This document shows positions 28,218 through 63,160 of a stretch of DNA of 64,000 bases, one piece after another. How positions within the stretch are numbered: position 1 is the stretch's first letter; each line of letters begins with the position of its first letter. The notes beneath the pieces were generated by a model that was given only the letters and a program-made list of their open reading frames with translations, did no database searches and had not been told where the DNA came from. Origin of the DNA: Patescibacteria group bacterium (GTDB taxonomy: Bacteria > Patescibacteriota > Minisyncoccia > UBA6257 > GWB1-50-10); the NCBI GenBank assembly GCA_040757555.1, contig JBFLWN010000006.1, forward strand, positions 5,748 to 69,747. Reading direction: 5' to 3'. The position numbers were made by a program, and so were the translations under genes.

Positions 28218-28536
28218 GGGGGTGCACGTATCGACAGAGATTATATGTATACATAGCAGGTCGAGCTGAATATCTCGAAAACTGTTCAACAAATTATAAC
28301 TGCCAATTTTAACGCAGTCCCCGCGCTCGCTTACGCGTAGTACGGCATCGGCCCTTCAGGTCTCATAGAGGATCACCGGTGTTATAATGAGAACCGCTCA
28401 GAGTATGGATCTACTTCGCTCCATCCTGAGTTAAATAACGCAAAGTACCATTGTTCTGAACTTTTAGTTCAAAAACTAAGCTTGTAGAATATGTATAGAT
28501 AAATTTTTGGAAGAGGGTTCAATCTCTCCACCTCCA
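28218..28536 (+). ncRNA. ssrA: tmRNA (ssrA), ~319 nt, standard non-permuted form
   Basis: Immediately downstream of smpB. 5' end GGGGGTG...ATCGACAG (tmRNA 5' consensus-like). 3' tRNA-like end with T-arm GAGGG-TTCAAT-CTCTC and acceptor CACCTCC pairing to GGGGGTG with G3-U70 (alanine identity); discriminator A. Internal tag reading frame GCC AAT TTT AAC GCA GTC CCC GCG CTC GCT TAC GCG TAG (28302-28340). Terminator aaccccttagtggggttttt follows. Confidence 0.7.
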
Positions 28537-28549
28537 CAAATAAAACCCC

Positions 28550-28880: not shown

Positions 28881-29177
28881 TTAACCACATTTTCCACAGT
28901 GTTGACCAACTCCTTCAACATAATTTTCCCGAAGATCAACGTTTGTGCCATATGTATGTTCTGTTTCGTTTCCACACACTACACAAAGCTCAATCTCGCG
29001 ACCGGTAACTTTTGGCCCATTGTTTTCAACAGAATAATTTATTCTTTCTTCAATGCATTTTTTACAGGCATATACCACCGTACAAGGCGGAACAAGGTTT
29101 TTATCATGACGCACCTCAGAAGGAACTTTTCCACAATCCATACATAGTGTAACCCCAAGAATATTTTTAGGTTCCAT
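28881..29177 (-). CDS. Cys-rich multi-zinc-ribbon hypothetical protein
   Basis: 98 aa with four CxxC pairs (CMDCG, CKKC, CVVCG, CGKCG), suggesting two zinc-ribbon or rubredoxin-like knuckles. Terminator atccgctgttttggcggat at 28853-28880. Confidence 0.4.
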   Translation of the reverse strand: MEPKNILGVTLCMDCGKVPSEVRHDKNLVPPCTVVYACKKCIEERINYSVENNGPKVTGREIELCVVCGNETEHTYGTNVDLRENYVEGVGQHCGKCG

Positions 29178-47273: not shown

Positions 47274-48281
47274 ATGTGCGCAAAAAAAGAAGAAAAAAAC
47301 AACAATAATGATCTTGGGTTTGATCTTGCGCTCCGCCCCGGAACATGGAATGAGTATGTGGGTCAGGAGAAAGCGAAAACAAATTTGCGCCTCATCATCG
47401 ACGCCGCAAAAAAGAGGGGGGAAAGTTGTGATCACCTTCTTTTTTACGGCCAAGCGGGTTTGGGAAAAACAACACTTGCATATCTAGTGGGAAAGGAAAT
47501 GGGAGTCCAGGTACGATCAACGACTGGGCCAGCACTCGAAAAAGCAGGAGATGTCGCTGCAATTTTAAGTAATATCGAGCCCCATGAAATTTTATTTATT
47601 GATGAAGCGCATCGTATCAATAAGCTTGTTGAAGAAATTTTATATCCGGCGCTTGAAAGTAGAAAACTTCATTTTATTGTTGGAAAGGGACCGTCGGCAC
47701 GAACGTTTTCACTTGATCTTCCCCCGTTCACTGTCGTTGCCGCAACTACACGGGTGAATGTGCTTTCAAACCCGCTTCGTTCACGTTTCGGCGCAACCAT
47801 TAAACTTGATTATTATCGAAATGAAGATATTGAAAAAATAATAAAACAGTCTGCGCATATTTTAAAAACAAATATTACTCCGACCGCGATTTCTATGCTT
47901 GCTCGCGCATCACGATTTACTCCACGCACCGCAAATAGACTATTAAAACGTGCACGCGACTATGCTGAGGTATACCACAACGGATCAATCGACGAACACG
48001 TGGTGGAAAAAACACTATCACTTCTTGAGGTGGATCCACTTGGGCTCGAACACACCGATAGAGAACTTTTAAAGACTATAATTAAGCGATTTAGTGGTGG
48101 CCCAGTGGGAGTAAAAGCGCTTGGGGCCGCACTTTCCGAGGAGGTTGGAACTATTGAAGATGTATATGAGCCATTTCTTATGAACCTTGGGTTTCTCGAG
48201 AGGACATCACTGGGACGCGTTGCAACAAAATCAGCATACGAATATCTCGGTATACCGTTCAAAAAAAACGAACTTGTTTAA
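47274..48281 (+). CDS. ruvB: Holliday junction DNA helicase RuvB
   Basis: LRPGTWNEYVGQEKAK...LLFYGQAGLGKTTLA (Walker A), sensor and arginine-finger regions, winged-helix C-terminus. 335 aa. Confidence 0.9.
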   Translation: MCAKKEEKNNNNDLGFDLALRPGTWNEYVGQEKAKTNLRLIIDAAKKRGESCDHLLFYGQAGLGKTTLAYLVGKEMGVQVRSTTGPALEKAGDVAAILSNIEPHEILFIDEAHRINKLVEEILYPALESRKLHFIVGKGPSARTFSLDLPPFTVVAATTRVNVLSNPLRSRFGATIKLDYYRNEDIEKIIKQSAHILKTNITPTAISMLARASRFTPRTANRLLKRARDYAEVYHNGSIDEHVVEKTLSLLEVDPLGLEHTDRELLKTIIKRFSGGPVGVKALGAALSEEVGTIEDVYEPFLMNLGFLERTSLGRVATKSAYEYLGIPFKKNELV

Positions 48282-48285
48282 AGAA

Positions 48286-48729
48286 ATGAGATTTTATTCC
48301 AACTCCCCTCTTCACACAAAAAAAATAGCACAAAAATTGGCAAAAGAAGTGCTTCTCTCCCCCCACAAAAAAACAGTGGTGGTGGGGCTTATAGGAGATT
48401 TAGGAAGTGGAAAAACAACGTTTGTGAAAAGTTTTGCGAAAGAATTTGGAATACGATCAAATATCACAAGCCCCACTTTTCTTATTCAAAAAAAACACAA
48501 AATTAAAAAGAGTGGGTTCGCGTCATTTCTCCACGTGGATGCCTACCGTATAAAAAAAATAAATGAATTATATACCATTGGATTTACAGACGAATTGTCA
48601 AATAATCAGAATGTTGTTGTTATTGAGTGGGCGGATATGATAAAAAAGATTCTTCCTAAAAAAATGATTTGGGTTTCGTTTGTGCATGGGAAAAACAAAA
48701 ACCAACGATATGTCAGTATTAAAAAATAA
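48286..48729 (+). CDS. tsaE: tRNA threonylcarbamoyladenosine (t6A) biosynthesis protein TsaE (YjeE)
   Basis: Walker A LIGDLGSGKTTFVKSFAKEFGI and ...SPTF...H.D.YR pattern of the TsaE P-loop family. ATG 48286 chosen over the upstream extension that overlaps ruvB. Confidence 0.75.
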   Translation: MRFYSNSPLHTKKIAQKLAKEVLLSPHKKTVVVGLIGDLGSGKTTFVKSFAKEFGIRSNITSPTFLIQKKHKIKKSGFASFLHVDAYRIKKINELYTIGFTDELSNNQNVVVIEWADMIKKILPKKMIWVSFVHGKNKNQRYVSIKK

Positions 48730-51109
48730 AAAAATTCTTCTTATTGATGCCCATTCGCTCATCCACCGATCGTTTCATGCGCTCCCCCCACTCACCGCAC
48801 CAGACGGAAAACCCACGGGTGCGTTATACGGAGTTTCGAGCACACTCCTTCGAGTGTTGAAAGAAAAATCTCCAGATTATGTTGTTGCGGCATTTGATCG
48901 CCCAGAACCAACATTTCGAAAGGAACAATACGCGGAATACAAAGCACATCGCCCAAAAGCACCCGATGAACTTATTTCTCAACTAAAGGAATCGCGCGAG
49001 CTTTTTAAAAAGTTTGGTATTTATATATCAGAAATTCCTGGATATGAGGGCGATGATATTATTGGGACGCTTTCTGAAAAATTCAGTAAAGAGGAGGGGG
49101 TGTTTATTACTATTCTGACTGGGGACCTCGATACCCTTCAATTAGTAAAAAACGGGAAGGTTGAGGTAGAAACATTCAAAAAAGGAATAAATGACGCCAT
49201 GATATATGACGAAAACGCGGTACGCGAACGCTTAGGGGTTATGGTAGAACACGTTCCGGACTACAAGGGACTTGTCGGAGACCAATCAGATAATATACCG
49301 GGAATCCCCGGGGTTGGACCAAAAACAGCCGCACAACTCATCTCAAAATACGGAACCATAGAACATATATATGCATCCATAAACACCCAAGACCCGTTGT
49401 TTAAAAAAATTGGCGAACATAAAAAAATAGCGCTTCTTTCAAAAAACCTCGCAACAATAAAAAGAGACGTGCCGATAGATGTTTCTCTCGAGGAGGCAAA
49501 GTACGAAAAATTAGATCTAAAAAAATTGGAAGAGTATTTTGATTATTTGGGATTTGAAAGTCTTATAAAAAGGCTTGGATTAAATAGGAGTGGTGGAGAA
49601 AAAAAAGATGAAAATACACAATATACAACACACAACAATGTTTTTGTTGTATATGATTGGAAAGAAAAAATAAAACTCAAAGAAAGTAACTTAATTTCTC
49701 CGGACAGCGTGTTTGATATAAAAATAGCCGCGTGGCTTCTCGATCCTGATAAAAACAAACTCTCGGTTGATGATATATCAAAAAGATTTCTAAAAACTAT
49801 TTCATCTAACGATGATTTGGGTGTGTTATATAAAACTCTGGAAGAATCTATAAAAAACAATAAACTCGAGAAAGTGTTTTATGGGATAGAAATGCCACTT
49901 ATTCCTATTCTCGCAAGAATGGAATCGACTGGAATTTTGTGTGACGACAACCTCCTTGTTCGCCTTGAGAAGAAAATAAAAGAAGAAACAAAGAAAACGG
50001 AAGAAAAAATAATTGAACTTGCCGGAGAGAAATTTAATATTTCTTCGCCGCGACAAGTTGGAGACATCCTTTTCACAAAACTTCACATAAAAGAAAATAA
50101 AAAACACAAAACAAAAACCGGAATGAATTCAACTGCGGAATCTGTTTTAGTTGAATTGAAAGACCAACACCCGATAATTGAGCACATCCTTGTTTATCGG
50201 GAAAATATGAAAATTCTCTCGACATACGTCTCTCCCCTCCTTGAATATGCGCGAGCGGACACGGATCATCGGATACACACTACGTATATACAAACAGGAA
50301 CGGCGACCGGAAGACTTTCTTCGGAAAAACCAAACCTACAAAACATTCCTCAAGAATCGAAGTGGTCAAAAGAGTTGCGTGAAGCATTTATTCCAAAAAA
50401 TGGGTTTTCCTTCCTATCATTCGATTATTCACAACTCGAACTGCGACTTCTTGCTCATATATCAAGGGATGAAAAATTACTCTCCGCGTTTCTTCACGGA
50501 AAAGATATCCACAATATTACTGCCGCCCAAATATTTAACATCGACGAGTCCGCGGTGACTCCTGAGTTGCGGAGAATCGCAAAAACACTGAATTTTGGGG
50601 TTGCATATGGAATGGGGCCACGGGCATTTTCCGCAACAAGTGGTATATCTATCGATGACGCGAAACGATTCATTAATGAATATTTTTCTGATTTTCCGAA
50701 AGTAAAAGAGTGGCAAGAAAAAATGAGGGTTGAGGCACAAACTGGCGGAACAATAAGAAACGAGACTGGTCGTATACGGGTGTTTCCTGGTGGAATAAAA
50801 AACAAAAAAATTATATCAGAAATGGAACGAGCGGCCATAAACATGCCTGTACAAAGCCTTGGGGCGGATATTATCAAACTTTCCATGGTCGCCGCACAGA
50901 AGTTTATTGATATACAGAAATATGCCGATTCGATGCGACTTATTCTCACCATACACGATGAATTGATATTCGAGGTGCGTGATGATATTCTGAAAAGTAT
51001 CATCGCTCCAGTAAAATACCTCATGGAGCACCCCCTCTCTCTTTTGGTACCGCTTACCGTAGAGGTAAAAATAGGAAAAGATTGGGGAAATATGAAAAAA
51101 TATGAATAA
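48710..51109 (+). CDS. polA: DNA polymerase I (5' nuclease domain plus family A polymerase domain)
   Basis: N-terminal 5'-3' exonuclease (ILLIDAHSLIHRSFHAL..., H3TH GIPGVGPKTA). Polymerase motif A (LLSFDYSQLELRLLAH), motif B (RRIAKTLNFGVAYGMG) and motif C (IHDELIFEV). ~800 aa. Confidence 0.9.
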   Translation: MSVLKNKKILLIDAHSLIHRSFHALPPLTAPDGKPTGALYGVSSTLLRVLKEKSPDYVVAAFDRPEPTFRKEQYAEYKAHRPKAPDELISQLKESRELFKKFGIYISEIPGYEGDDIIGTLSEKFSKEEGVFITILTGDLDTLQLVKNGKVEVETFKKGINDAMIYDENAVRERLGVMVEHVPDYKGLVGDQSDNIPGIPGVGPKTAAQLISKYGTIEHIYASINTQDPLFKKIGEHKKIALLSKNLATIKRDVPIDVSLEEAKYEKLDLKKLEEYFDYLGFESLIKRLGLNRSGGEKKDENTQYTTHNNVFVVYDWKEKIKLKESNLISPDSVFDIKIAAWLLDPDKNKLSVDDISKRFLKTISSNDDLGVLYKTLEESIKNNKLEKVFYGIEMPLIPILARMESTGILCDDNLLVRLEKKIKEETKKTEEKIIELAGEKFNISSPRQVGDILFTKLHIKENKKHKTKTGMNSTAESVLVELKDQHPIIEHILVYRENMKILSTYVSPLLEYARADTDHRIHTTYIQTGTATGRLSSEKPNLQNIPQESKWSKELREAFIPKNGFSFLSFDYSQLELRLLAHISRDEKLLSAFLHGKDIHNITAAQIFNIDESAVTPELRRIAKTLNFGVAYGMGPRAFSATSGISIDDAKRFINEYFSDFPKVKEWQEKMRVEAQTGGTIRNETGRIRVFPGGIKNKKIISEMERAAINMPVQSLGADIIKLSMVAAQKFIDIQKYADSMRLILTIHDELIFEVRDDILKSIIAPVKYLMEHPLSLLVPLTVEVKIGKDWGNMKKYE

Positions 51110-52271
51110 TATGTTTTCTTTTTTCTCAAAAACAAAAAAAACTCAAGATAATTTTCTTTGTCAAAGAAAATTATTGGCAATTGTAGAAAACTTAAGAGAT
51201 GGGCTTATTATGTATTCCCCACAATTTGAAATACTAGAATTCAATCCCGCGGCTGAAAATATTTTTTCTGTAAAAAAAGATGAGGTTTTGGGAATGGTTA
51301 TTGAACCAAAGTTAAATCAGATAGAAAAATTTAAATCACTCACTCAGGTGATTTACCCATCTCTTGCTTCGTCTGTCTCCCAACTTTCTGAAGCAAGTGT
51401 GTGGCCACAAATAATAGAGATCTCTATTGAGGAACAAAATAAAAATTTTTATACCGTCCTAAATAGAATTACCGACGAGAACGGAAAAATTATCTGTTTC
51501 TTGAAAATAGTGAAAGACGAAACACGAGAACAAGCAATATTACAAAGCAAAAACGAGTTTATCAATACCGCAGCTCATCAACTAAGAACCCCGCTCACCG
51601 CGCTTAATTGGGCACTTGAAAATATATTAAAATTTTCAGAAAACTCATCTCCGGAAATACACGACGTGGCAACCGAAGCGATAAAAGTATCAGAGCGAAC
51701 ACTTAAAATTACCAACGATCTTCTTGATGTTGCAAAAATAGAAGAAGGAAAATTTGGATACTCATTTAAGAATGTTGATATTGTTGTATTTGTGAATGGA
51801 ATTATAGATGCAGTAATCCCATTTGCCCACCAACATTCGACGCAAATTACATTTTCCCACCCAAACATAAACGAATTATATGTCGCTATGGACCCCGATC
51901 GATTGGGGCTTGCCCTCTTTAATCTCATTGATAACGCGGTAAAATACACCGTAGAACAGGGGGTTGTCTCAATACTGCTCGAAAAAAACGAAAACCTTAT
52001 AAAAATCTCAATACAAGACTCTGGAGTTGGTATTCCTGAAAACGAAAGGGAAAAGATATTCAAAAAATTCTATCGCGCGACAAATGCCGCCCAAGTTGAA
52101 CCAAATGGAAATGGATTGGGTCTTTTTATTACACAAAACATTATCAAAAGACATGGGGGAGATATTGGGTTCGAGTCGCGCGCTGGGCGTGGCACCACAT
52201 TTTGGTTTACCCTTCCAATAAAAAGCGTCTCTGTTGGTGATGAGTCGTCTGTGTTTAAAAATATTTCTTAG
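51102..52271 (+). CDS. sensor histidine kinase (PAS-like sensor, HisKA, HATPase_c); no cognate response regulator adjacent
   Basis: H-box AAHQLRTPLTALNWALE; N-box LIDNAVKYT; G-boxes IQDSGVGI and GNGLGLFITQNIIKRHGGDI. 389 aa, cytoplasmic (no TM). Confidence 0.8.
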   Translation: MNNMFSFFSKTKKTQDNFLCQRKLLAIVENLRDGLIMYSPQFEILEFNPAAENIFSVKKDEVLGMVIEPKLNQIEKFKSLTQVIYPSLASSVSQLSEASVWPQIIEISIEEQNKNFYTVLNRITDENGKIICFLKIVKDETREQAILQSKNEFINTAAHQLRTPLTALNWALENILKFSENSSPEIHDVATEAIKVSERTLKITNDLLDVAKIEEGKFGYSFKNVDIVVFVNGIIDAVIPFAHQHSTQITFSHPNINELYVAMDPDRLGLALFNLIDNAVKYTVEQGVVSILLEKNENLIKISIQDSGVGIPENEREKIFKKFYRATNAAQVEPNGNGLGLFITQNIIKRHGGDIGFESRAGRGTTFWFTLPIKSVSVGDESSVFKNIS

Positions 52272-52299
52272 TGTTTTTTTGTGGTGTCGGTTTTTTATT

Positions 52300-52776
52300 A
52301 TGATTATTTTAGGAATTGATCCAGGAACAAGTCGTGTGGGAATTGGTGTGATAAAAAAACACGGCAACTCTTTGATTCATGTAGAAAGCAGCCTTCTTCC
52401 TTTGCGGAAAATATATATAAACGAGGGAGAGCGTCTTTGTGTTTTAGAAAAGGAACTCAAAAAAGTTTTAAAAAGAAGAAAACCAGATCTTGTGGGAATC
52501 GAAAGTCTTTATTTTTCAAATAATCAAAAGACGGCGTTTTCGGTAAGTCAGGCGCGGGGGGTAATATTAAAAACAATTGCCGAAAATAAAATTCCATATA
52601 TAGAACTCGCTCCATCTGAAATAAAACTATCGATTGCGGGACATGGAAAGGCGCCTAAAGAACGTGTTGCACACATGGTGGGAATTCTTCTTCAGATAGA
52701 CACAAAAAAAATTATTGATGACATAACCGATGCGCTCGCAATTGCAATTGCTGCGTGTTATATAAAAAAGTATTGA
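52300..52776 (+). CDS. ruvC: crossover junction endodeoxyribonuclease RuvC
   Basis: MIILGIDPGTSRVGIGVI (RNase-H-fold N-terminus with catalytic Asp), later catalytic E/D/D (LVGIESLYF..., ITDALAIAIA). Internal ATG 52300 chosen. Confidence 0.85.
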   Translation: MIILGIDPGTSRVGIGVIKKHGNSLIHVESSLLPLRKIYINEGERLCVLEKELKKVLKRRKPDLVGIESLYFSNNQKTAFSVSQARGVILKTIAENKIPYIELAPSEIKLSIAGHGKAPKERVAHMVGILLQIDTKKIIDDITDALAIAIAACYIKKY

Positions 52777-53161: not shown

Positions 53162-55645
53162 ATGATAAAAAAGAAGAAGGTAAAAAAAGGGGGGTTCACT
53201 AAAACATTTTGGTCTGTGTTTATATTTGGATCATTTGGAATTCTTGTTGTTGGTTCTGTATATATTGCAATTCTCATCCAAACACTTCCCTCTCCAGAAC
53301 AGTTTAATGTTCAGAGATCCAATCAATCAACAAAAATATACGACAAAAACGGTGAGGTGGTCCTCTATGAAATACATGGGGAAGAAAAGAGAACGGTTGT
53401 GCCGTTTGAAGAAATACCCGATGTGGTAAAAAAAGCAACACTTGCTGCCGAAAATGCAGATTTTTATAATCAACCAGCATTTGATTGGCGAGCGATTCTC
53501 CGGGCCCTTTATGCAAATATAAAAAAAGGTACAACTGCACAAGGGGGATCTACCATCACCCAACAACTCGCAAAAAACGTTTTCCTTAGTCCAGAAAAAA
53601 CAATAACAAGAAAGGTAAAGGAACTTATTCTTGCTCTTGAACTCGAATCAAAATATTCCAAAGATCAAATTCTTTATTTTTATCTCAATCAAATACCCTA
53701 TGGATCAAACGCATATGGGGTTGAGGCCGCAAGTCAAAGTTATTTTGGAAAATCTGTACGAAATATTTCTTTGGAGGAAGCTGCTGTTCTTGCGGGAATG
53801 TTGAAGGCCCCGAGTTATTTTTCTCCGTGGGGATCTCACACAAAAGACCTTCTTGATAGAAAAAATTATGTGTTGGACCGCATGGGAGAATTAAATTTTG
53901 TGGAAAAAGAGATTGTAGAGAAGGCAAAAAAGAAAGAGGTTGTGTTTACTCCCCCATCCCTCGGATCAATTAAGGCGCCCCACTTTTCCCTTATGGTAAA
54001 AGATTATCTCATAAATAAATATGGGGAAGAATTGGTCAATAATGGTGGATTAAAAGTTATTTCCACACTTGATTGGAAGATGCAGGAAATAGCCGAAAAA
54101 GCTGTTCTGGAGGGCTCTAAAAACAACGAAAACGTCTATGGTGCCAATAACGCCGCCCTCGTCGCAGAAGACCCAAAAACAGGCCAAATTTTAGCTTTGG
54201 TGGGTTCTAGAGATTACTTTGATATTAAAAACGAAGGAAATTTCAATGTTGCGGCTCAAGGAATGAGACAACCAGGATCAGCGCTTAAACCATTTATATA
54301 TCTCACCGCCTTTCATAAGGGCTACTCCCCAAAAACCGTTCTTTTTGACGTAAGCACAGAATTTGATTTGAGAGATTCTCCGGAAACAAGTTACCGTCCT
54401 CAAAACTTTGATGGGATGGATCATGGACCCGTAACACTCGAAAATGCACTTGCACAATCATTAAACATTCCCGCGGTAAAATTATTATATCTTGCGGGAG
54501 TAAATGACTCATTAAAAACTCTTCATGACTTTGGTATCAGCACCCTTAAAGAAACGTGGCGATATGGACTCTCGTTGGTTTTGGGTGGTGGGGAGGTAAA
54601 ATTAATTGATCTTGTAAACACTTATGGAACTCTTTCTCAGGAGGGTGTACGTCACGAACAATCTATTGTTTTAAAAATAGAAGACACTGAAGGAAATATT
54701 TTGGAAGACTACACCGACAATACAAAAAGAGTTTTCGACGACACCCAATCAATGAGGCTTGTTACACAAATTCTCTCATCACCGGAACTTCGTGCACCAA
54801 TTTTTGGAAACTCTCTTCCTTTTACAATATATGATGGATACGACGTGGCATTAAAAACAGGAACGTCCGGCGACCATCGTGATGCGTGGGTGGTTGGATA
54901 TACCCCATTCCTTGTTGTTGGTGCGTGGGCAGGAAACAATGACAATACCCCAATGATACGACAAGGGAGTAGTATTCTCGCTGCCGTTCCTATTTGGAAT
55001 TTGTTTTTACGTGATGTTATAAAAAAATACGAGCCAGAAAAATTTATAGAACCAGAACCAATTCCCTATACATCAAAACCAATGATCAATGGGGAATACA
55101 TGTGGAAACCAATAATTCAGGGGAAAACATATCCACAAATACACTCAATTCTTTATTATGTTGATAAAGAAAATCCCTTAGGTCCAAAACCAAAAAACAC
55201 CTCAATCGATCCGCAGTTTAAAAATTGGGAAGTTGGAGTGTTGAATTGGGCACGAACAAATATTCCGGATTTCCAGTTGTGGAACCAATCGATTGCGGGA
55301 GATATTTCGTTTTCATCAGACCAAGAAAACACAACCCAAAGTAATCTTGGGGGGGAGGTAAATGAAAAAACAACAATCACTGTTATTTCCCCGAAGAACG
55401 GTGAATTTGTTGTCTCTCCATTCATTATCCAAGCAAATATCCGAGCAGGAAAAAACAAAGAATTAAGACGAGTTGAATTATCAATAAACGATCGACTCAT
55501 AAACGGTTTTGATATAGAAGGGGTTTCATATAGATATCAATATTATTTCAATACAATACTTGATCCTCAGAATCTTTTTGAAATAAAAACAACCGACTCC
55601 TCCGGGTCGATTGTTAAAAATTCATTTATCGTCTATAAAAAATAG
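53162..55645 (+). CDS. class A penicillin-binding protein (PBP1A-type; glycosyltransferase GT51 plus transpeptidase) with a ~200-aa C-terminal extension
   Basis: N-terminal TM anchor; GT51 motifs (EDxxFYxHxG-like ENADFYNQPAFD, GGSTITQQLAKNVFL); transpeptidase SxxK (SALKP), SxN, KTG (KTGTS). 827 aa. Confidence 0.85.
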   Translation: MIKKKKVKKGGFTKTFWSVFIFGSFGILVVGSVYIAILIQTLPSPEQFNVQRSNQSTKIYDKNGEVVLYEIHGEEKRTVVPFEEIPDVVKKATLAAENADFYNQPAFDWRAILRALYANIKKGTTAQGGSTITQQLAKNVFLSPEKTITRKVKELILALELESKYSKDQILYFYLNQIPYGSNAYGVEAASQSYFGKSVRNISLEEAAVLAGMLKAPSYFSPWGSHTKDLLDRKNYVLDRMGELNFVEKEIVEKAKKKEVVFTPPSLGSIKAPHFSLMVKDYLINKYGEELVNNGGLKVISTLDWKMQEIAEKAVLEGSKNNENVYGANNAALVAEDPKTGQILALVGSRDYFDIKNEGNFNVAAQGMRQPGSALKPFIYLTAFHKGYSPKTVLFDVSTEFDLRDSPETSYRPQNFDGMDHGPVTLENALAQSLNIPAVKLLYLAGVNDSLKTLHDFGISTLKETWRYGLSLVLGGGEVKLIDLVNTYGTLSQEGVRHEQSIVLKIEDTEGNILEDYTDNTKRVFDDTQSMRLVTQILSSPELRAPIFGNSLPFTIYDGYDVALKTGTSGDHRDAWVVGYTPFLVVGAWAGNNDNTPMIRQGSSILAAVPIWNLFLRDVIKKYEPEKFIEPEPIPYTSKPMINGEYMWKPIIQGKTYPQIHSILYYVDKENPLGPKPKNTSIDPQFKNWEVGVLNWARTNIPDFQLWNQSIAGDISFSSDQENTTQSNLGGEVNEKTTITVISPKNGEFVVSPFIIQANIRAGKNKELRRVELSINDRLINGFDIEGVSYRYQYYFNTILDPQNLFEIKTTDSSGSIVKNSFIVYKK

Positions 55646-55646
55646 T

Positions 55647-56762
55647 TTAGTTTTTTATAGGCATCGCAACATAAATTAATGATGGATCGGTTTGATTTTT
55701 TATGATAACCGGCCTATCTGAAGTGGTTACTCCAATAATAAGCTCATCACTCTTGAAAATTTTAAATCCATCGGACAAATACTTCCAATTAAACACGAGT
55801 GTGAAACGCTCCCCCTTTAAATGAATTGGCACCTTACATCTATTTTCTCCAAGTGCATTATCTGAAGAAAATAACTCAATATATTTTTTGTTTTCTCCGA
55901 CAGTAAGTGTAATATCGTTTCCCCTTCCTGAAAACGAACTGGTAAGTCGTATTGCGTTCAAAAATTCCTGTCGTGGAATAATTGCTTCGGTATGTGTTTG
56001 TTTTGGGATAATTGGTTGATAGTCGGGAAAGTTTCCATCAATAAGACGGGATATTATCTCAGTGCTCTGCGTTTTAAATAATATTTGTGTTGGATCTATA
56101 AAAACAAAAACCTCACCTTCTTCCTGGTTATGAAGAATTTTTAAGATCTCTTCGGAGGTTTTTAGTGGAATAATACACTTCACTGGTTCTACAAATGTTG
56201 ATTTTATAAATCCCGCATCTACCCTCTTCTCTGCGAGACGAAAACTATCGGTTCCCGCACATACCATTCCATATTCTTCGACTCCTACAAAAACACCACT
56301 AATTTCGGGTCGTATTTCTGAATATTGCGTTGCGACAATAACACTCTCTATTGTTTCGACAAGTGTTTTTGAATTTATCTGTAAACTTTGGGTTTTATTA
56401 TGAATTGAGGGAATAATCGGAAATTCTTTTATTTCTTGTGTTTGTACAAAAGCTTCATAATTATCCGTCTCTATAAACAGCTTTTTTCCTTTTGATTCCA
56501 GTGTAATTCGTTCAGAGGTTATATTTTTAATAATAGTACTGAAAAGATGTAGTGGTATTGCAACTTCTCCGTTCTCTATTATTTTTCCTGAAGATATATA
56601 CGTAATTGCCAATTCCAGGTTTGTCGTCGTAAAAACAATCTTGTTGTCATCTGTTCGTATATATACACATTTTAAAATTGGAAGATTTGAATTTTCTCCA
56701 ATCGCCCGATCGACGACACTAAGTGCTTCCAAAAGTTTATTTCTTAAAACAACGAGTTTCAT
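55647..56762 (-). CDS. dnaN: DNA polymerase III beta sliding clamp
   Basis: MKLVVLRNKLLEALSVVDRAI...LPILKCVYI is a canonical DnaN N-terminus. 371 aa three-domain size. Immediately downstream of dnaA on the same strand. Confidence 0.85.
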   Translation of the reverse strand: MKLVVLRNKLLEALSVVDRAIGENSNLPILKCVYIRTDDNKIVFTTTNLELAITYISSGKIIENGEVAIPLHLFSTIIKNITSERITLESKGKKLFIETDNYEAFVQTQEIKEFPIIPSIHNKTQSLQINSKTLVETIESVIVATQYSEIRPEISGVFVGVEEYGMVCAGTDSFRLAEKRVDAGFIKSTFVEPVKCIIPLKTSEEILKILHNQEEGEVFVFIDPTQILFKTQSTEIISRLIDGNFPDYQPIIPKQTHTEAIIPRQEFLNAIRLTSSFSGRGNDITLTVGENKKYIELFSSDNALGENRCKVPIHLKGERFTLVFNWKYLSDGFKIFKSDELIIGVTTSDRPVIIKNQTDPSLIYVAMPIKN

Positions 56763-56977
56763 ATTATTATTATTATTATTAAATATTTTTTATAAGATAA
56801 GAATAGTAGTGATAATAAGGGGTGTGTATATGTGGATATCTTTGTTTTTTCATACTCCATATCGTTTTTTTATCCACAAATAAAAAGAAGAAAATTCTAA
56901 AAGGTTGATATCATTTTGTTTAGTTTTGGTTTTTATGCAAAATACTTCCACTTATACCTTTTTTATACACAGGTTTT
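56763..56977. promoter_or_regulatory. putative replication origin (oriC) in the dnaA-dnaN spacer: DnaA boxes plus AT-rich (ATT)7 unwinding-element candidate
   Basis: Perfect DnaA box TTATCCACA at 56870-56878; TGTGGATAT (one mismatch from the reverse box TGTGGATAA) at 56831-56839; TTATACACA (one mismatch) at 56963-56971; (ATT)7 tandem repeat at ~56763-56783. A 215-bp AT-rich non-coding region in the classic dnaA-dnaN context. Confidence 0.6.
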
Positions 56978-58360
56978 CTACGACTTATACAACCGTTCCT
57001 TTATAAGCATTATTTTTTGATTAAATTGCTGATTTTTATTTATTTCTTTTTCTATTTTTTCACACGCATGAATTGCAGTCGTATGATCCCTTTTTCCCAA
57101 CTTTTCCCCAATGTGGGGATACGAGAGTTTCAATATATCCCTCAAAAGATACATTGCAATTTGACGGGGTTCCACCACTTCTTTTTTTCTACTTCGATCA
57201 GTAAGTTCTGCCTGAGAAACCTCAAAAAAGTCCGCAACCGCCTTAATAATTTCTTGAACAGTGAGGTTTTTTGATGTGGTTTGGGTTGTTTCGTTTATGA
57301 TTTCATCGAGTTTTTTTCCATCAATTCCATCCTTGTGTTGAATATAAAACACCACCTTATTTAATACCCCCTCCAATTCCCTGATGTTTTTTTGTACTTT
57401 TGAGGCAATGTGTTCAAGCACCTTATCTTCAACAACAATTCCTTTTCTTTGTGTTTTTGTTTTTAAAATTGCCAAACGCATCTCATAATCCGGATAACTA
57501 ATATCAGCAATCATTCCCCCCTCAAATCTCGAGCGTAGGCGCTCTTCAAGTGTCGGAATTGCAGAGGGCGGTCTATCAGAAGAGATAATAATTTGTTTGT
57601 TGTTTTCATAAAGTGCATTGAATGTATGAAAAAATTCTTGTTCGGTTGCGGCTTTCCCACCAATAAACTGAATGTCGTCGATAATAAGGACATCCACGTC
57701 TCTATATTTCTTTTTCATATCATCAATTCTTTTATTTCGAATACCAGAAACAACATCATTCAAAAATTTTTCTGAAGTTACGTACAGCACCGCAATATTT
57801 TTTTGATATTGTTTTATAATTTCATTTCCCACCCCTTGAATAAGATGAGTTTTTCCGAGTCCAACACCCCCATACACGAAAAGAGGATTATATTTTTTCC
57901 CAATATCTTTTATTACTGCTTGCATCGCTGCGTATGCAAGTTCGTTTGATGAGCCAACAATAAACGAATCAAGTGTATATCGTGGATTTAAGTTTGTTTT
58001 AGGATCAATTTTAAGTTCAAGGGGAAGTTGAAAATTTGATTCATTTTTTTCTTCATTTACCCCCTTTTTTGTTTGTGTTGCAAAAGAATTCGTCCCGCTA
58101 TTTGTTGTTTGGTGGGATACAGAGTAATCAATGTTTTTTATTGAGGGATCAAAATTTCGAAGTGATCCGAGAATGATTTTGTGATAGCGGTTTTTTACCC
58201 ACTCTTTCGCAAAGTTGTTTGGAAGACTTACGAGCGCCACCCCATCTCGTTCATTCTTTCCAATAAGCTGACTTTGTTTTAACCACGTAAGAAAATTTGG
58301 TCGCGAAATTTGCAATTCTATTTCTCCCAACACAGCCCTCCAAAGTTCTTGTGATTCCAT
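56978..58360 (-). CDS. dnaA: chromosomal replication initiator protein DnaA
   Basis: N-terminus MESQELWRAVLGEIELQISRPNFLTWL; AAA+ Walker A NPLFVYGGVGLGKTHL; C-terminal DNA-binding domain (MYLLRDILKLSYPHIGEKLGKRDHTTAIHACEKI). 460 aa. Confidence 0.9.
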   Translation of the reverse strand: MESQELWRAVLGEIELQISRPNFLTWLKQSQLIGKNERDGVALVSLPNNFAKEWVKNRYHKIILGSLRNFDPSIKNIDYSVSHQTTNSGTNSFATQTKKGVNEEKNESNFQLPLELKIDPKTNLNPRYTLDSFIVGSSNELAYAAMQAVIKDIGKKYNPLFVYGGVGLGKTHLIQGVGNEIIKQYQKNIAVLYVTSEKFLNDVVSGIRNKRIDDMKKKYRDVDVLIIDDIQFIGGKAATEQEFFHTFNALYENNKQIIISSDRPPSAIPTLEERLRSRFEGGMIADISYPDYEMRLAILKTKTQRKGIVVEDKVLEHIASKVQKNIRELEGVLNKVVFYIQHKDGIDGKKLDEIINETTQTTSKNLTVQEIIKAVADFFEVSQAELTDRSRKKEVVEPRQIAMYLLRDILKLSYPHIGEKLGKRDHTTAIHACEKIEKEINKNQQFNQKIMLIKERLYKS

Positions 58361-58502
58361 GATCTTTATAATAGATACATTCTATAACGTTTCAATATTG
58401 ATTCATATTTTTTTTTGTGCTTTAATTGTTCATAAGGTGTGGAAAGAGGTTTTGTCGTAAATCACACAACCATATCGTCGCGACACATAAAGACAAAGAA
58501 TT

Positions 58503-58637
58503 ATGAGTAGGACATATCAACCAAAAAAGAAGAAAAGAGCCAGAACACACGGGTTTTTGAAGAGATCGAAGACCCCAGGGGGAAGAAATGTACTGAAAAG
58601 AAGGAGGGCCCGAGGAAGAAAGAAGCTTTCAGTATAG
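58503..58637 (+). CDS. rpmH: 50S ribosomal protein L34 (44 aa, below ORF-track cutoff)
   Basis: [44 protein letters not shown] is canonical L34. Divergent from dnaA, the typical arrangement. Confidence 0.9.
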
Positions 58638-58640
58638 ACA

Positions 58641-58886
58641 ATGAGTTTTTTTATTGTAAAAAAGAACAAGAGCGGGTCACAAAAAAAACCGCTCTTTATT
58701 GTTATCCGAGCGGCAGATATACAAACCGCAGTGAAAAGGAATGTGTTAAAGAGACAAATACGCACAATTGTCCAGAGAAATAAAAAAAACACAACATCCG
58801 GATATGATTACAAAATAATTGTAAAAAAAGGAGGAGACATGCTATCATTTGAACAAATTAAGAGAGAGATTGAACCATATTTGTAA
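58641..58886 (+). CDS. rnpA: ribonuclease P protein component, unusually short (81 aa)
   Basis: Position after rpmH and the RNR-like motif VKRNVLKRQIRTIV. Only ~30 residues precede the motif, versus ~60 in typical RnpA. Confidence 0.65.
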   Translation: MSFFIVKKNKSGSQKKPLFIVIRAADIQTAVKRNVLKRQIRTIVQRNKKNTTSGYDYKIIVKKGGDMLSFEQIKREIEPYL

Positions 58887-58900
58887 CTATTATTAATTTT

Positions 58901-59572
58901 ATGAGCGGAATTTTCCATACATACCTTTATTCTCCAATTTTGTGGGTTTTTATATTTATTTATGAGAACCTTGCATTTAAAGATATTGGGTTTTCAATTT
59001 TTATTCTCACCGTGCTCGTGCGTGTGGTGCTTTTTCCAATTTTTTATAAAAGCGCAAAGGACCAGTCGCTCATGCAAAGAATTCAGCCGAAGTTAAAAAA
59101 AATTCAGACCGATCACAAAGACAACAAAGAAGAACAAGCGCGGCAAATGATGAATTTGTACAAAGAAAACAAACTAAATCCTTTTTCTGGATTTCTTTTG
59201 TTACTCATACAACTTCCTGTTTTTATTGTGCTGTTTCAAATTTTTACCAGAGAACTTTCGACATCGGTGTTTGACAATCAACTATTTTTAGGCTTAATTA
59301 ACCTAGGAGAGAAGAGTATTATTATCGCGATTATTGCCGCTGGATTGCAATACTTACAAAGCAAATTACTTCTTCCCCCATCTTCAAAGGAAAACAAAGA
59401 TGAAGATACAATGGCGCGCGTTGGGAAAACGATGGTAGTGGTAGGGCCGGTACTTACGTTTTTTATATTAATGAATCTTCCATCGGCACTCGGATTTTAT
59501 TGGGTGATTTCATCACTTTTCTCTATCGCACAACAGGTTTATATTAATAAGAAAATACCAAAAGAATTGTAA
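58901..59572 (+). CDS. yidC: membrane protein insertase YidC (short Gram-positive/Oxa1-type)
   Basis: Five-TM core with conserved VRVVLFPIFYKSAK...NPFSGFLLLLIQLPVFIVLFQ, in rpmH-rnpA-yidC-jag synteny. 223 aa. Confidence 0.85.
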   Translation: MSGIFHTYLYSPILWVFIFIYENLAFKDIGFSIFILTVLVRVVLFPIFYKSAKDQSLMQRIQPKLKKIQTDHKDNKEEQARQMMNLYKENKLNPFSGFLLLLIQLPVFIVLFQIFTRELSTSVFDNQLFLGLINLGEKSIIIAIIAAGLQYLQSKLLLPPSSKENKDEDTMARVGKTMVVVGPVLTFFILMNLPSALGFYWVISSLFSIAQQVYINKKIPKEL

Positions 59573-59577
59573 TATAT

Positions 59578-60006
59578 ATGGACAACATACTTGAATCAAT
59601 AAAAATTATCGTGGAAAAAATGGGATTTCCCGGTGCGGAAATATCATTTGATCAGGAACACAGAAAAATGTCTTTAGTGATAGACGAAAAACTCATACAC
59701 GAAAACATCGGTATGTTTTTACCCGCACTCGACCATCTTTTTGGTCTCGTGTTTAGAAAACACGAACAAGCACCATTTGTGCTTGATGTGAACTATTATC
59801 GGAGGGAGAGAGAGCGGTTAATTGCCGAACTCGCACGAGCATCCGCAAAGAAAGCAATGGTAACAAAAACAGACATCGAGTTGCCTCCAATGAATGGATA
59901 TGAACGAAGGTTGGTACACATGGAAATCACCACCCACCCAGAATTAAGAACAGAAAGTGTTGGGGAAGGAAAAGAACGAAGGGTGGTAATAAAACACATT
60001 GAATAA
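59578..60006 (+). CDS. jag: Jag/KhpB RNA-binding protein (KH-like plus R3H domains)
   Basis: C-terminal R3H motif (ELPPMNGYERRLVHMEITTHPELRTESVGEG) and synteny after yidC. Terminator atcccgatatatatcgggat plus T-tract at 60011-60038, bidirectional. Confidence 0.75.
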   Translation: MDNILESIKIIVEKMGFPGAEISFDQEHRKMSLVIDEKLIHENIGMFLPALDHLFGLVFRKHEQAPFVLDVNYYRRERERLIAELARASAKKAMVTKTDIELPPMNGYERRLVHMEITTHPELRTESVGEGKERRVVIKHIE

Positions 60007-60038: not shown

Positions 60039-61241
60039 TTAAATTTCTTTTGATATATCAATTCGATAGAGGGTGTTATCAAATCGGTTTTTGAAATATA
60101 TATAATTCTCAAAAAACATTACCCCCGTCGCATCGGTTTTATAGGTGATAGCGGCAGATGCGCTTAACACCCCAATTTCTTTTGTTGAAAGATTAAATTT
60201 CATAAGTGTGTCGGTGGTAAATATTTTTCTTTGTTGATATGAATCGAAAAAACCAATATAGTCATTTTGTTCTTGCGGAACAAAACAATAGGTAGTGCTC
60301 GCAAATAAATCACACTTATCGGGGATTGTGAAAAAATCCACATAGGTTGTTGTTTTTAGTGAGTTGGTGATAAAACCAAGTTGTTTTTTTGACGGGATAG
60401 AGAAAAATATATTCTTTTTGTCTTTTGAAAAACCGGGTGTCCCTCCCCGTTCCGTTTGGACAACAAGTGATAGACTTTGATCTTTCTGATTGAATTCCCA
60501 CACCCTTGAAGGATAAAAACTACTTGATCTTTCAGAAAATAATATTCTGTCAGTCGGCACAACCGAAAGGAAAACATCGTTTAAAACAAAATCTTTTAAC
60601 AGTGTTTTGTATGTTGGTTGAGCCTTTTCAATATTTATTTCCACCAAATCTTTTTTCCCCGAGTTTTTGACTATTCCAAAAAGTTTTTTTTCCGAACCCC
60701 CCCACACCACACTTACCAAATCAGAAGAGAGGGGTTTCCATGTTTTATCAACTACATTAAATATTCCGGTTTGAAGATTGTTTTTTTCCCCGAATGATGC
60801 AAGTATTTTTTCTCCTGTTTGATTCGGAAGAAGCGCATATATTGTTCCTACGGCTTGTGGCGATATTTTTTGATCATCTTCTGTTTTTGCGAGATAGACA
60901 TCTCCATCGGAATTGGTATAGAAAATCTCGTTTGTCTTTTTATTTACCCAAAAATATCCAATTTCTTGGTCTGATAATTTTTCAAGTATTGGAAGAGTGT
61001 CTCCTTGTATTTCAGATGGTGACCCCTCGGTGTTTTCACTGCCAGCGCCCTCGGGAACATCTCCGTTGTTTGTGTTTGTAACAATATTTTCACTACCACC
61101 CGGAAGAGTGTTTATTTTTGTGTTATCTATTGATACGTCTTCAATTGGTGTTCCAAAGACGACCTTCCAAGCAAAATACAATCCTGCAATACAAACAATT
61201 CCAATAAGGGTAAGAACAATTATTTTTTTTGTTTTACTCAT
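60039..61241 (-). CDS. hypothetical membrane-anchored extracytoplasmic protein (last gene of the minus-strand operon at window end)
   Basis: 400 aa, N-terminal TM anchor IIVLTLIGIVCIAGLYFAW, followed by a low-complexity linker (NTNNGDVPEGAGSENTEGSPSE) and a beta-rich domain. 3-nt gap to the upstream gene. Confidence 0.35.
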   Translation of the reverse strand: MSKTKKIIVLTLIGIVCIAGLYFAWKVVFGTPIEDVSIDNTKINTLPGGSENIVTNTNNGDVPEGAGSENTEGSPSEIQGDTLPILEKLSDQEIGYFWVNKKTNEIFYTNSDGDVYLAKTEDDQKISPQAVGTIYALLPNQTGEKILASFGEKNNLQTGIFNVVDKTWKPLSSDLVSVVWGGSEKKLFGIVKNSGKKDLVEINIEKAQPTYKTLLKDFVLNDVFLSVVPTDRILFSERSSSFYPSRVWEFNQKDQSLSLVVQTERGGTPGFSKDKKNIFFSIPSKKQLGFITNSLKTTTYVDFFTIPDKCDLFASTTYCFVPQEQNDYIGFFDSYQQRKIFTTDTLMKFNLSTKEIGVLSASAAITYKTDATGVMFFENYIYFKNRFDNTLYRIDISKEI

Positions 61242-61244
61242 AAA

Positions 61245-62486
61245 TTATTTAAAATTAACATGTATATGTTCTACTTGTTCGTAATAATTACCACAATCTT
61301 TTGCGTACGAGCGATTTTGATATGTGGTGCATATTTTTGATATATTCGAGTTGTTATTTTTCAAATAATTCAAAAGTTGTGTGTTTGTTGATAAATCAAC
61401 AACTGGTTTGTCAGCCCCATGTGTTGCGTGTCCATTCTCTGCCCCCCCCGTTATTGTAACGTCACACGCACACGATTTTTTTATATTTATCACCGCATCG
61501 ATTGTTGAAGCCGGAAGGAGTCCGACGTTTGTGCACTTAGGATTAAATGGATCTGCACAATTTCCAGAACTACTCACACGCACTCCATTCAAAGCAAGTT
61601 TTTCAACTGCTTTTTTTTCTGCGGCATCCATACCAGTGGTATATGAAGTTTTTGTGTACTTACAATTCCCATCAAATCGGTTAATGATACAACATGTTTG
61701 ATTATGGTCCTTGTCCCATCCCCACCCATCATCATTACACTCTGCTTCGCCCCCATTTTGCTCTATTGCGAGGCAACAACTTATCCCATCTATATTTGGG
61801 TCGCTGGATGCTGCTTTTCGGCACTCTTCTTTTGAATCTTTATAACAATATCCCCACTCTGTTTTTGTGACTGGCTTATCTTCTGTTGAATATTTACATT
61901 CGCCAATAATTTTGTCTTTCAAACAACAACTTTTTTTACTTGCGTTGTCATATCCCCATCCGTCGGTTTGACATCGCGCTTGCCCCCCATTTACATCAAC
62001 CGCGACACAACAACTATCTTTTTTTTGTTCATCCCACTCCCAGACCTTTTCTGTAAGGACTTGAGAATTGCTAATAAATTGTGGACCCTGTGGTTCTCGA
62101 ATTGCAATAAGTTGCGGGTTTATTGTATTTAAAATGACATATGCACCAAAAAGCAGACCAAGCCCCCAGAGCGCAGAAAAAATCATATCCTTCCCCTCAT
62201 TTTGTTTATCAGGACTTCCCCCGGAAACCGTATATAATATTCCTCCTGCCACCATCATTCCAACAGCCAATATTCCCGATATACCAATTGCGAATTGATA
62301 AAGTCTTCGGATGTAATTGGGAATACTTGCGGTTGTGTCAGCAGAAGCACAATCAGTGTATCCGAGAACTTGTGTGCCAAAACTGGTACAAGGGAATTTA
62401 TAATCTATTATTGCCGCGTGTACAGTGAAACTAAACAAAAAGAACAAAACAAGAAAAAAGACTATTTTTAAATTTGATTTTGCCAT
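61245..62486 (-). CDS. secreted/membrane protein: TrbC/VirB2-like two-helix pilin-type module fused to a Cys-rich internally repeated extracellular domain
   Basis: Signal peptide (IVFFLVLFFLFSFTVHA). Hydrophobic hairpin FAIGISGILAVGMMVAGGILYTVSGG-SPDKQNEGKD-MIFSALWGLGLLFGAYVILNTI with Gly-rich packing faces like VirB2/TrbC pilins. Then two tandem repeats SCCVAVDVNGGQARCQTDGWGYD / SCCLAIEQNGGEAECNDDGWGWD and further Cys pairs. 413 aa. Confidence 0.4.
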   Translation of the reverse strand: MAKSNLKIVFFLVLFFLFSFTVHAAIIDYKFPCTSFGTQVLGYTDCASADTTASIPNYIRRLYQFAIGISGILAVGMMVAGGILYTVSGGSPDKQNEGKDMIFSALWGLGLLFGAYVILNTINPQLIAIREPQGPQFISNSQVLTEKVWEWDEQKKDSCCVAVDVNGGQARCQTDGWGYDNASKKSCCLKDKIIGECKYSTEDKPVTKTEWGYCYKDSKEECRKAASSDPNIDGISCCLAIEQNGGEAECNDDGWGWDKDHNQTCCIINRFDGNCKYTKTSYTTGMDAAEKKAVEKLALNGVRVSSSGNCADPFNPKCTNVGLLPASTIDAVINIKKSCACDVTITGGAENGHATHGADKPVVDLSTNTQLLNYLKNNNSNISKICTTYQNRSYAKDCGNYYEQVEHIHVNFK

Positions 62487-62488
62487 AA

Positions 62489-63160
62489 TTATTGTATAAA
62501 AAGATTTATTTTTTCTTTCGCAGACTCGAGTCCATTTTTTACATTTTGAACAAACGCCTCAATCACCATATTTTTTTGATCCGGTGTTTTTGGGGAACCA
62601 ATATTTAGTGTAAGAAGGGTGTCGCGCGTCTCGTTTTGTTTTTCCCCATTAATTCGCCACAAAGAAGTGATTTCAGATGGAGAAGAGATATTGAAAAAAA
62701 ACGGAACAACCAAAAAAGTAACCCTTTCTCCCGAGGCAACAAGCCCTCTCGGATATTTATTTTCAATTGTTATTATTGGGTTAAAAACAGGAACAGAAAC
62801 AAGATTTTCATATTTATTTGTTTTTGTTTGGACAACAACACGCACAGAATGAGAACTCCTTCCGATTTTTGTTATAGGAAACGAGAACTCTTTTAATCCA
62901 ACACCCTTATTAGAAAACACACCATCGAGGAACCATGATATCTCAGCTTGAGAAATGTTTTGTATTTTTTTATTTATAAGAAGTTCCACAGAGACTGCGA
63001 TTATATTACCATTGGTTGGGAGTGGCTTTGCTTCAAAGTCTGCCGAAGTATAGTTGTCCGCGTGCCACGTGACGAGGAGGTTGTTTTCTGTTTGTCCAAA
63101 AACATTCGAGAAAACAAAAAAGAAGGAGAGGAATAAAACAAATAAAACTTTTACACTCAT
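62489..63160 (-). CDS. hypothetical secreted protein (signal peptide, beta-rich)
   Basis: Signal peptide MSVKVLFVLFLSFFFVFSNVFGQTE. 223 aa. 2-nt gap to the downstream gene, same operon. Confidence 0.35.
   Translation of the reverse strand: MSVKVLFVLFLSFFFVFSNVFGQTENNLLVTWHADNYTSADFEAKPLPTNGNIIAVSVELLINKKIQNISQAEISWFLDGVFSNKGVGLKEFSFPITKIGRSSHSVRVVVQTKTNKYENLVSVPVFNPIITIENKYPRGLVASGERVTFLVVPFFFNISSPSEITSLWRINGEKQNETRDTLLTLNIGSPKTPDQKNMVIEAFVQNVKNGLESAKEKINLFIQ

Follow-up and report, generated by a model that had tools for sequence, protein, structure and literature searches.

Gene order and sequence elements at the dnaA-dnaN spacer

The subject of this analysis is the spacer between dnaA and dnaN in a stretch of 64,000 nucleotides (hereafter the window) from contig JBFLWN010000006.1 of a Patescibacteria group bacterium, and its candidate role as the chromosomal replication origin. 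The spacer spans 56763-56977 (215 bp, 22% GC) and lies between two open reading frames (ORFs) on the − strand, with a gene cluster of opposite orientation on the far side of dnaA:

55647-56762, − strand: dnaN (DNA polymerase III beta clamp), 371 aa, with three Pfam beta-clamp domains (E 3e-27 to 5e-17)
56978-58360, − strand: dnaA, 460 aa, with domains I, III and IV all present (Pfam Bac_DnaA, 5e-65)
58503-60006, + strand: the rpmH-rnpA-yidC-jag cluster, divergent from dnaA (Pfam)

The Pfam matches beyond dnaA are to rpmH, rnpA, a short yidC and an R3H/jag gene, and they bear out the gene calls and the divergent rpmH cluster proposed in an earlier note on this DNA. Scanning GTDB species representatives with DnaA yielded 80 loci of relatives, all from metagenome-assembled genomes (MAGs) of Paceibacteria, ‘Jorgensenbacteria’ or Patescibacteria, which confirms the assignment of the window to the candidate phyla radiation (CPR) made in the same note. 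The order jag-yidC-rnpA-rpmH, followed after a change of direction by dnaA-dnaN, is kept in 79 of these 80 loci. Exact-sequence look-ups of DnaA and YidC gave no match, a search of Rfam at E ≤ 1 over 56600-58650 likewise gave none, and no terminator-like hairpins were found at the locus. From the dnaA stop codon to the dnaN start codon, the spacer contains the following elements:

56963-56971, + strand: box TTATACACA, 1 mismatch, 6 nt past the dnaA stop codon, 87% conserved among close relatives
56933-56941, + strand: weak box TTATGCAAA, 2 mismatches, 62% conserved
56870-56878, + strand: perfect DnaA box TTATCCACA, distal and opposite in orientation to the tandem pair, the sole perfect box in 64 kb, 89% conserved among close relatives
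56831-56839, − strand: upstream box of the tandem pair, ATATCCACA, 1 mismatch, pointing to the trios; reads TGTGGATAT in inverse orientation
56823-56831, − strand: unwinding-element-proximal box ATATACACA, 2 mismatches, sharing 1 nt with the box at 56831-56839
56819-56822: GC cluster of 4 bp, reading CCCC in the dnaA sense, which separates the first trio from the proximal box; read from the sequence
56798-56818, + strand: DnaA-trio array of seven triplets, 5'-TAA GAA TAG TAG TGA TAA TAA-3', read from the sequence
56761-56795: A/T-only run of 35 nt, the longest pure A/T run in 64 kb
56762-56781: (AAT)6 on the dnaN-sense strand, running into the dnaN ATG (Tandem Repeats Finder, TRF: period 3, 6.7 copies, 100% match)

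A motif scan returned the three box positions given in the earlier note (56870-56878, 56831-56839 and 56963-56971) and brought the count to three boxes with at most one mismatch and five with at most two in 215 bp. In Markov simulations with the spacer's own composition, the probability of finding at least three boxes with at most one mismatch in 215 bp is 1.5e-4, and that of finding a perfect box is 3.4e-3; over the whole window there are 32 boxes with at most one mismatch vs. 19.7 ± 4.3 expected from dinucleotide shuffles. The overlapping tandem boxes are kept across relatives and are 92% identical in the six closest sequences (DnaA 83-96% identical), and most relatives also carry a reverse-oriented box at the position of 56963-56971. 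The function of the weak box at 56933-56941 is doubtful given its poor conservation. The box at 56963 also starts a weak 11-bp-phased run of box-like 9-mers (56952-56993, + strand) that extends into the 3' end of dnaA with a summed mismatch of 7; it is the sole site in the window besides the array upstream of dnaA (see below) to reach this value, and, as the coding sequence constrains it, may be a chance match.

The third of the spacer nearest to dnaN reads, on the dnaA-sense (−) strand, 5'-ATATCCAC/ATATACACA-CCCC-TTA TTA TCA CTA CTA TTC TTA-TCTTATAAAAAATATTT(AAT)6-ATG(dnaN), such that the overlapping boxes (56839-56823) are followed by CCCC (56822-56819), the seven trios (56818-56798) and the A/T run (56795-56761). 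Both the elements and their uniqueness in the window are direct observations. Read from the boxes, the trios are 3'-AAT AAT AGT GAT GAT AAG AAT-5', with an exact 3'-[G/A]AT-5' in four of the first five and a central A in six of seven; the core forms CTA/TTA occupy four of the first five positions, and four consecutive NTN triplets begin 13 nt from the proximal box. The orientation of boxes relative to trios was inferred from later papers of the DnaA-trio group and from the E. coli R1/DNA unwinding element sequence. The earlier note had described the boxes correctly, but had overlooked the second overlapping box, the GGGG/CCCC cluster and the DnaA-trios.

The basal unwinding system (BUS) defined in B. 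subtilis consists of a DnaA box and no fewer than three trios (consensus 3'-GAT-5', central A), separated by a spacer of at most 16 bp that accommodates a further box together with a GC-rich motif (about 4 bp) (PMC8287927, PMC6669920). In the window, a box with at most two mismatches (ATATCCACA) faces the trios, a co-oriented second box (at most four mismatches) lies next to it, and the spacer does not exceed 16 bp. The distance from the better box to the first trio is 12 bp, made up of 8 bp of the second box and 4 bp of CCCC, and the published mode of this spacer is 13 bp (PMC8287927). A GC-rich motif of 4-5 bp has been described in B. subtilis and H. pylori (PMC8235120), and a C-rich spacer of 3-5 bp occupies the equivalent position in most relatives of the window. 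The published looser rule, under which at least three consecutive trios have the central adenine on the trio strand, holds in the window. Judged by these elements, the locus qualifies at the level of sequence as a DnaA-dependent oriC whose BUS is of the B. subtilis/C. difficile/H. pylori type.

The module also stands out by its composition and by its score. The least stable duplex in the 64 kb by nearest-neighbour free energy is the 50 bp from 56758, and the 35-nt A/T run probably represents the AT-rich portion of the DNA unwinding element. A composite box and trio score, which combines the mismatches of the tandem boxes with the number of CTA/TTA trios after a spacer of 1-7 nt, reaches 23 at 56839 (− strand), while no other site in the 128 kb of both strands exceeds 17 and 60 simulated 64-kb sequences yield at most 19.

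The DnaA protein encoded next to this spacer aligns over its full length to the B. subtilis DnaA of the BUS cryo-electron microscopy entry 8BTG (E = 4e-110, ~55% identical). In this alignment it keeps Asn187, Lys222, the arginine finger Arg264 and the box-reading motif DHTT of domain IV, while Ile190 is replaced by Val as in E. coli and Aquifex. Asn187 is known to contact the central adenine of the trio, and the roles of these residues are taken from published work (PMC10721633, PMC8287927). The residues for box reading, trio contact and oligomerisation are retained.

Conservation of the module and replication polarity

To describe the module at the level of the clade, we scored the spacers of the species representatives for a box with at most two mismatches followed after 0-16 nt by at least three of five core CTA/TTA trios. 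The strict trio rule (at least three consecutive after a box with at most two mismatches) misses the site in the window, and “at least three, or four of five” was used instead, with the same thresholds applied to the controls. Among the 76 usable dnaA-dnaN spacers, the module is found in 65 on the dnaA-sense strand and in none on the opposite strand, compared with a mean of ~0.6 of 76 in shuffled spacers; this orientation-specific conservation is observed directly. The rpmH-dnaA spacers carry it in only 1 of 79 cases in the sense direction and in 0 of 79 in the antisense direction. An assumption-free 7-mer enrichment of the relatives' dnaA-dnaN spacers is headed by trio words (CTACTAC, 38-fold) and box cores (TATCCAC, 26-fold), with 7-mers of the CTACTAC type being 30-54 times enriched.

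The same elements stand out in the six closest sequences, where identity is 87-92% in the boxes, 80% in the trios and 78% in the AT core, but 60% in the remaining spacer; the third codon positions of dnaA and dnaN are 49-74% identical in these sequences. This pattern reads as a clear phylogenetic footprint.

The compositional polarity of the flanking genes may point in the same direction. The raw cumulative GC skew of the window, with minima near 46 kb and at the right end, follows gene orientation, and we therefore used a gene-wise model of the skew at third codon positions (GC3) in which the top-strand GC3 skew of each gene is the sum of an orientation term (c × orientation) and a replication term (r × side). 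To the left of the site (51 genes) the fit gives c = 0.074 and r = 0.106. The orientation-corrected GC3 residual is +0.100 to the right of dnaA (8 genes) and −0.106 to the left (Mann-Whitney p = 5e-4), and a change-point scan across every gene boundary places the switch best at 58,432, with 56,870 among the top five; the improvement was equalled in 5 of 2000 gene-order permutations. This switch, which is a direct observation, agrees with the sign change expected at an origin, and it does not separate the two spacers flanking dnaA. In the relatives the pooled top-strand skew of the flanking genes is −0.127 on the left and +0.087 on the right, suggestive values that are confounded because these genes are mostly orthologous and nearly all face the origin.

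The arrangement is also similar to that of well-characterized origins. The incC region of B. subtilis is a dnaA-dnaN spacer of 189 bp in which the overlapping boxes 6/7 are accompanied by a GC motif of 4 bp, by six trios and by an AT-rich region (PMC8235120). The locus in the window shares with it the location between dnaA and dnaN, a similar size (215 bp here vs. 189 bp), overlapping co-oriented boxes beside the unwinding element (6/7 there), a 4-bp GC cluster, some six or seven 3'-[G/A]AT-5' trios on the complement of the dnaA sense strand, an AT-rich tract, distal boxes in either orientation and the trio and box residues of DnaA (PMC8235120, PMC6669920, PMC10721633). It differs in having fewer boxes (~5 vs. 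7 downstream and 3 vs. 13 upstream of dnaA), in that the better box of the pair is ATATCCACA rather than the full consensus, in a trio run broken at the third triplet, and in an AT-rich tract that ends in a polymorphic (AAT)n touching the dnaN ATG.

In C. difficile oriC2, where the trio string is 5'-CACCTACTACTATTACTACTATGA-3' (PMC7561715), the rpmH/dnaA/dnaN context is the same and the boxes lie directly upstream of a GC-preceded CTA/TTA trio run and then the unwinding element; this string is almost matched in relatives of the window, e.g., by CCCCTTACTACTATTACT in the loci L032 and L060. The oriC1/oriC2 of H. pylori is similar in its two box subregions split by dnaA (PMC8235120, PMC3479198), with the unwinding element downstream of dnaA, fused tandem boxes, a GC-rich motif, YTR trios and an AT-rich region. 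C. difficile has 5-9 boxes downstream and 9-19 upstream together with experimental P1 mapping, and H. pylori has topology-sensitive boxes of divergent consensus for which looping and the need for both halves have been demonstrated, whereas the present locus is known from its sequence only.

The spacer upstream of dnaA and competing readings

The spacer between rpmH and dnaA contains a second set of elements, which must be considered in placing the origin:

58416-58446, − strand: three head-to-tail box-like 9-mers in exact 11-bp phasing, CTTTCCACA cc TTATGAACA at TAAAGCACA, pointing to dnaA, with a summed mismatch of 7
58368-58395, − strand: probable dnaA promoter, TTGAAA-16 nt-TATTAT (promoter scan 10/12)

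The three-box array, one of two such sites in the window along with that at 56963, has a summed mismatch of at most 7 in 50 of 80 relatives vs. 0 of 2400 shuffled spacers, and its consensus in the clade is TTATCnACA nn TnATnCACA AT TAAAnCACA. The earlier note had reported a box-like GTGTGGAAA at ~58437; this box-like 9-mer (TGTGGAAAG, 58438-58446) was placed 1 nt off and constitutes the first member of the array. An A8 tract follows the array, which ends ~20 nt upstream of the −35 hexamer. The promoter block is almost invariant in the window and L001-L003, the pattern TTGAAA/TTGCAA ... TATnAT is kept in most relatives, and the ~85 nt before dnaA (58361-58446) are almost invariant in the four closest genomes, to a degree that exceeds synonymous-site conservation. 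Only 7 nt separate the end of the −10 hexamer TATTAT from the dnaA ATG, and a Shine-Dalgarno sequence is missing, which suggests a leaderless dnaA mRNA. The upstream spacer has neither trios nor an extreme AT tract. By its position the array resembles a dnaA autoregulatory operator, and it could equally be that or a part of the initiation machinery; the “bipartite” origin of the earlier note thus stands only in the sense that box clusters lie on both sides of dnaA.

Such an array raises the question of whether initiation and unwinding take place in the rpmH-dnaA spacer, with the boxes between dnaA and dnaN being merely an auxiliary or regulatory DnaA-binding region. The best change-point of the GC3 skew at 58,432 and the conserved, 11-bp-phased boxes with their A8 tract would fit this explanation, but the trios are practically confined to the other spacer, the upstream spacer is not among the least stable segments of the window, and the array stands directly upstream of a conserved −35/−10 pair, as expected of an autoregulatory operator. 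The preference of the scan for 58,432 over 56,870 moreover hangs on dnaA alone, the GC3 residual of which is −0.16 compared with a between-gene standard deviation of 0.14. We regard an origin located upstream of dnaA as improbable.

That the boxes are purely transcriptional operators for dnaN and dnaA, with the true origin elsewhere on the chromosome, seems very improbable to us. DnaA doubles as a transcriptional regulator in numerous bacteria, promoter-like sequences adjoin the boxes and the window is only a part of the genome, all of which would be compatible with such a role; regulation alone, however, leaves unexplained the orientation-specific layout of box, GC cluster and trios in 65 of 76 species, the extreme A/T tract and the switch in GC3-skew polarity. 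DnaA-regulated expression and origin function could coexist at this locus. A chance cluster of box-like words in AT-rich intergenic DNA might be expected in a spacer of 22% GC given the AT-rich consensus of the box, and the other apparent cluster in the window, at 28881-29135, did prove coincidental. The composition-matched simulation (P = 1.5e-4) speaks against this explanation, and the conservation of the elements, but not of the flanking spacer, over 76 species effectively refutes it.

It is thus highly probable that the locus is the chromosomal oriC of a Paceibacteria (CPR) genome with its unwinding module in the dnaA-dnaN spacer, and the gene identities, the non-random boxes and, more tentatively, the GC3 polarity switch support the origin claim of the earlier note. 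Several points nevertheless reduce our confidence in this assignment. The raw cumulative GC skew tracks the mixed gene orientation and is uninformative, and the GC3 switch is underlain by only 7 kb and eight genes to the right of the site; its best change-point is in the rpmH-dnaA spacer rather than in the dnaA-dnaN spacer, a choice that the dnaA gene decides by itself. The third triplet, TCA, lacks the central T/A and interrupts the trio run, such that at least three consecutive core trios next to the GC cluster are found in many relatives but not in the window. The composite scores were devised after the data had been seen, with the controls evaluated at the same thresholds, and the support as a whole is drawn from sequence.

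With an origin in the dnaA-dnaN spacer, a path of initiation can be proposed on the model of B. subtilis, H. pylori and C. difficile, from which the steps of DnaA binding, filament formation, unwinding and helicase loading are inferred. DnaA-ATP would dock via domain IV on the co-oriented overlapping boxes (56839-56823), with probable help from the boxes at 56870-78 (distal, perfect) and 56963-71, while the three-box array upstream of dnaA may give a looped contribution. From this anchor the AAA+ domains would oligomerise over the CCCC onto the + strand trios (56818-56798), capturing and stretching that strand, and melting would then spread to the A/T-only tract of 35 nt (56795-56761), the presumed site of helicase loading. 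The (AAT)6 repeat would serve in this scheme as the outer end of the easily melted tract as well as the untranslated leader of dnaN.

The AAT repeat, neighbouring genes and significance of the locus

The AAT tract immediately adjoins the dnaN ATG and is the only such repeat that TRF finds in the window. The earlier note had given it as (ATT)7 over 21 nt; it actually consists of six full units, or 6.7 copies over 20 nt. Its length differs between the window and its closest relatives:

Window: (AAT)6
L161 (Logan assembly, SRR21427519), 98.1% identical over 5 kb with an identical DnaN: (AAT)4
L081, DnaA 96% identical: 4 units
L001, DnaA 93% identical: 3 units
L082, DnaA 96% identical: 2 units with an interruption

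Besides the repeat, the comparison of L161:1769-2023 with window positions 56740-57000 shows one single-nucleotide polymorphism, which changes trio 1 from TTA to CTA, both being allowed forms of the trio. The tract is thus lineage-specific and unstable, changing its length by slippage, and the whole-unit differences in copy number between strains bear out the slippage hotspot that had been anticipated. Because most relatives have no AAT tract and because the tract forms only the outer end of the A/T run, the suggestion that (ATT)n is the unwinding element needs to be qualified: it does not hold for the core, and holds only for a lineage-specific distal end. As in known simple sequence repeat loci subject to slipped-strand mispairing, a perfect trinucleotide repeat changes by whole units (6 vs. 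4) between near-identical strains; the difference is that it lies here in non-coding origin and leader DNA instead of a coding region or promoter spacer.

Perfect trinucleotide repeats of at least four units occur in 12 of 141 dnaA-dnaN spacers vs. 0 of 142 rpmH-dnaA spacers, and are mostly the trio arrays themselves. These arrays can resemble microsatellites, as in (CTA)7(TTA)5 of L046, (CTA)6 of L033 and (CTA)5 of L045. In the window, the (ATT)n tract (56764-56780) and the trio block (56802-56818) form an imperfect inverted repeat of 17 nt that is 82% complementary, with 21 nt between the arms; it could give rise to a single-strand fold or a cruciform, or may merely reflect two AT-rich triplet repeats. 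The idea that (AAT)n is a mirror-image trio array for a DnaA filament on the other strand was dropped, as no box is present at the required position inside dnaN.

The relation of the trios to the dnaN start is different in most of the clade. In the 45 spacers with a clear tandem-box and trio module (the window and 44 relatives), the median distance from the boxes to the dnaN ATG is 21 nt, and in 31 of them, e.g., L074, L031 and L066, the fifth and last trio runs into or directly adjoins the start codon (CTACT-ATG). In those 31, the GC content is 17.7% over the first 36 nt of dnaN but 41% over the gene as a whole; no such dip is seen at the start of dnaA (41% vs. 42.5%). For most of the clade, the AT-rich melting zone therefore appears to fall within the coding sequence of dnaN, although the low GC at the 5' coding end could alternatively stem from translation-initiation constraints. 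The lineage of the window has instead a non-coding A/T insert of 41 nt.

A more speculative proposal, which we consider rather unlikely, is that in Paceibacteria the unwinding element is physically fused to the start of dnaN, with the first ~12 codons as the melting zone, and that the window lineage has split the two by an A/T insert whose (AAT)n length tunes origin melting and/or dnaN expression. If this were true, the DnaA filament formed at initiation would directly occlude or open the start of dnaN translation and transcription, and the length of the repeat would act as a heritable and reversible control of replication initiation in an organism that has few regulators.

The surroundings of the locus show some additional features. 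A TTG-start ORF of 80 aa (56641-56883, + strand) crosses the spacer antisense to the dnaN start and was treated as spurious. On the other side of dnaN, a class A penicillin-binding protein gene (53162-55645, + strand) converges on it with 1 nt between the two stop codons, so that there is no space for terminators there. The genes for ruvB, polA (DNA polymerase I), a histidine kinase and ruvC form a same-strand block at 47274-52776, 4-9 kb from the origin, and all face it. The genes flanking the origin cluster (60039-63160 in the window and the flanks of L001-L080) face the origin in nearly all relatives (left, 135 of 137; right, 81 of 84), an orientation that is head-on to replication. A pilin-like gene of a type IV secretion system (T4SS) at 61245-62486, on the jag side, fits the reported layout with T4SS genes near dnaA (PMC12102498). 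Far from this locus, the second box cluster mentioned above, three boxes with one mismatch at 28881-29135, was rejected as an origin because these boxes are the Cys-Gly-Lys codons (TGTGGAAAA) of a zinc-ribbon-like gene (28881-29177, − strand). This gene encodes 98 aa with four CxxC motifs, has a strong Shine-Dalgarno sequence and no Pfam match, and is found just downstream of the transfer-messenger RNA gene (28218-28539).

In the literature on Patescibacteria the dnaA neighbourhood has been treated as the putative origin, with type IV secretion genes nearby, and has not been dissected (PMC12102498); a narrow literature search turned up no paper dissecting a CPR origin. The locus described here is most probably an ordinary DnaA-dependent origin, which is unsurprising and does not overturn current understanding; mild interest attaches to the microsatellite that varies between strains within the unwinding region, and to the joining of the trios to the dnaN start in relatives. 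The analysis narrows the probable origin of an uncultivated CPR genome to ~100 bp, which is of use for genome orientation, assembly checking and growth rates derived from coverage ratios. The natural series of trio arrays (up to (CTA)7(TTA)5), of distances between unwinding element and dnaN, and of microsatellite lengths provides material for studying how trio number and AT-tract length affect unwinding. For the group as a whole, the module of DnaA boxes and DnaA-trios known from Bacillus would extend into Patescibacteria, in the same orientation in at least 65 Paceibacteria species, and this reach supports the claim that the mechanism is ancestral in bacteria.

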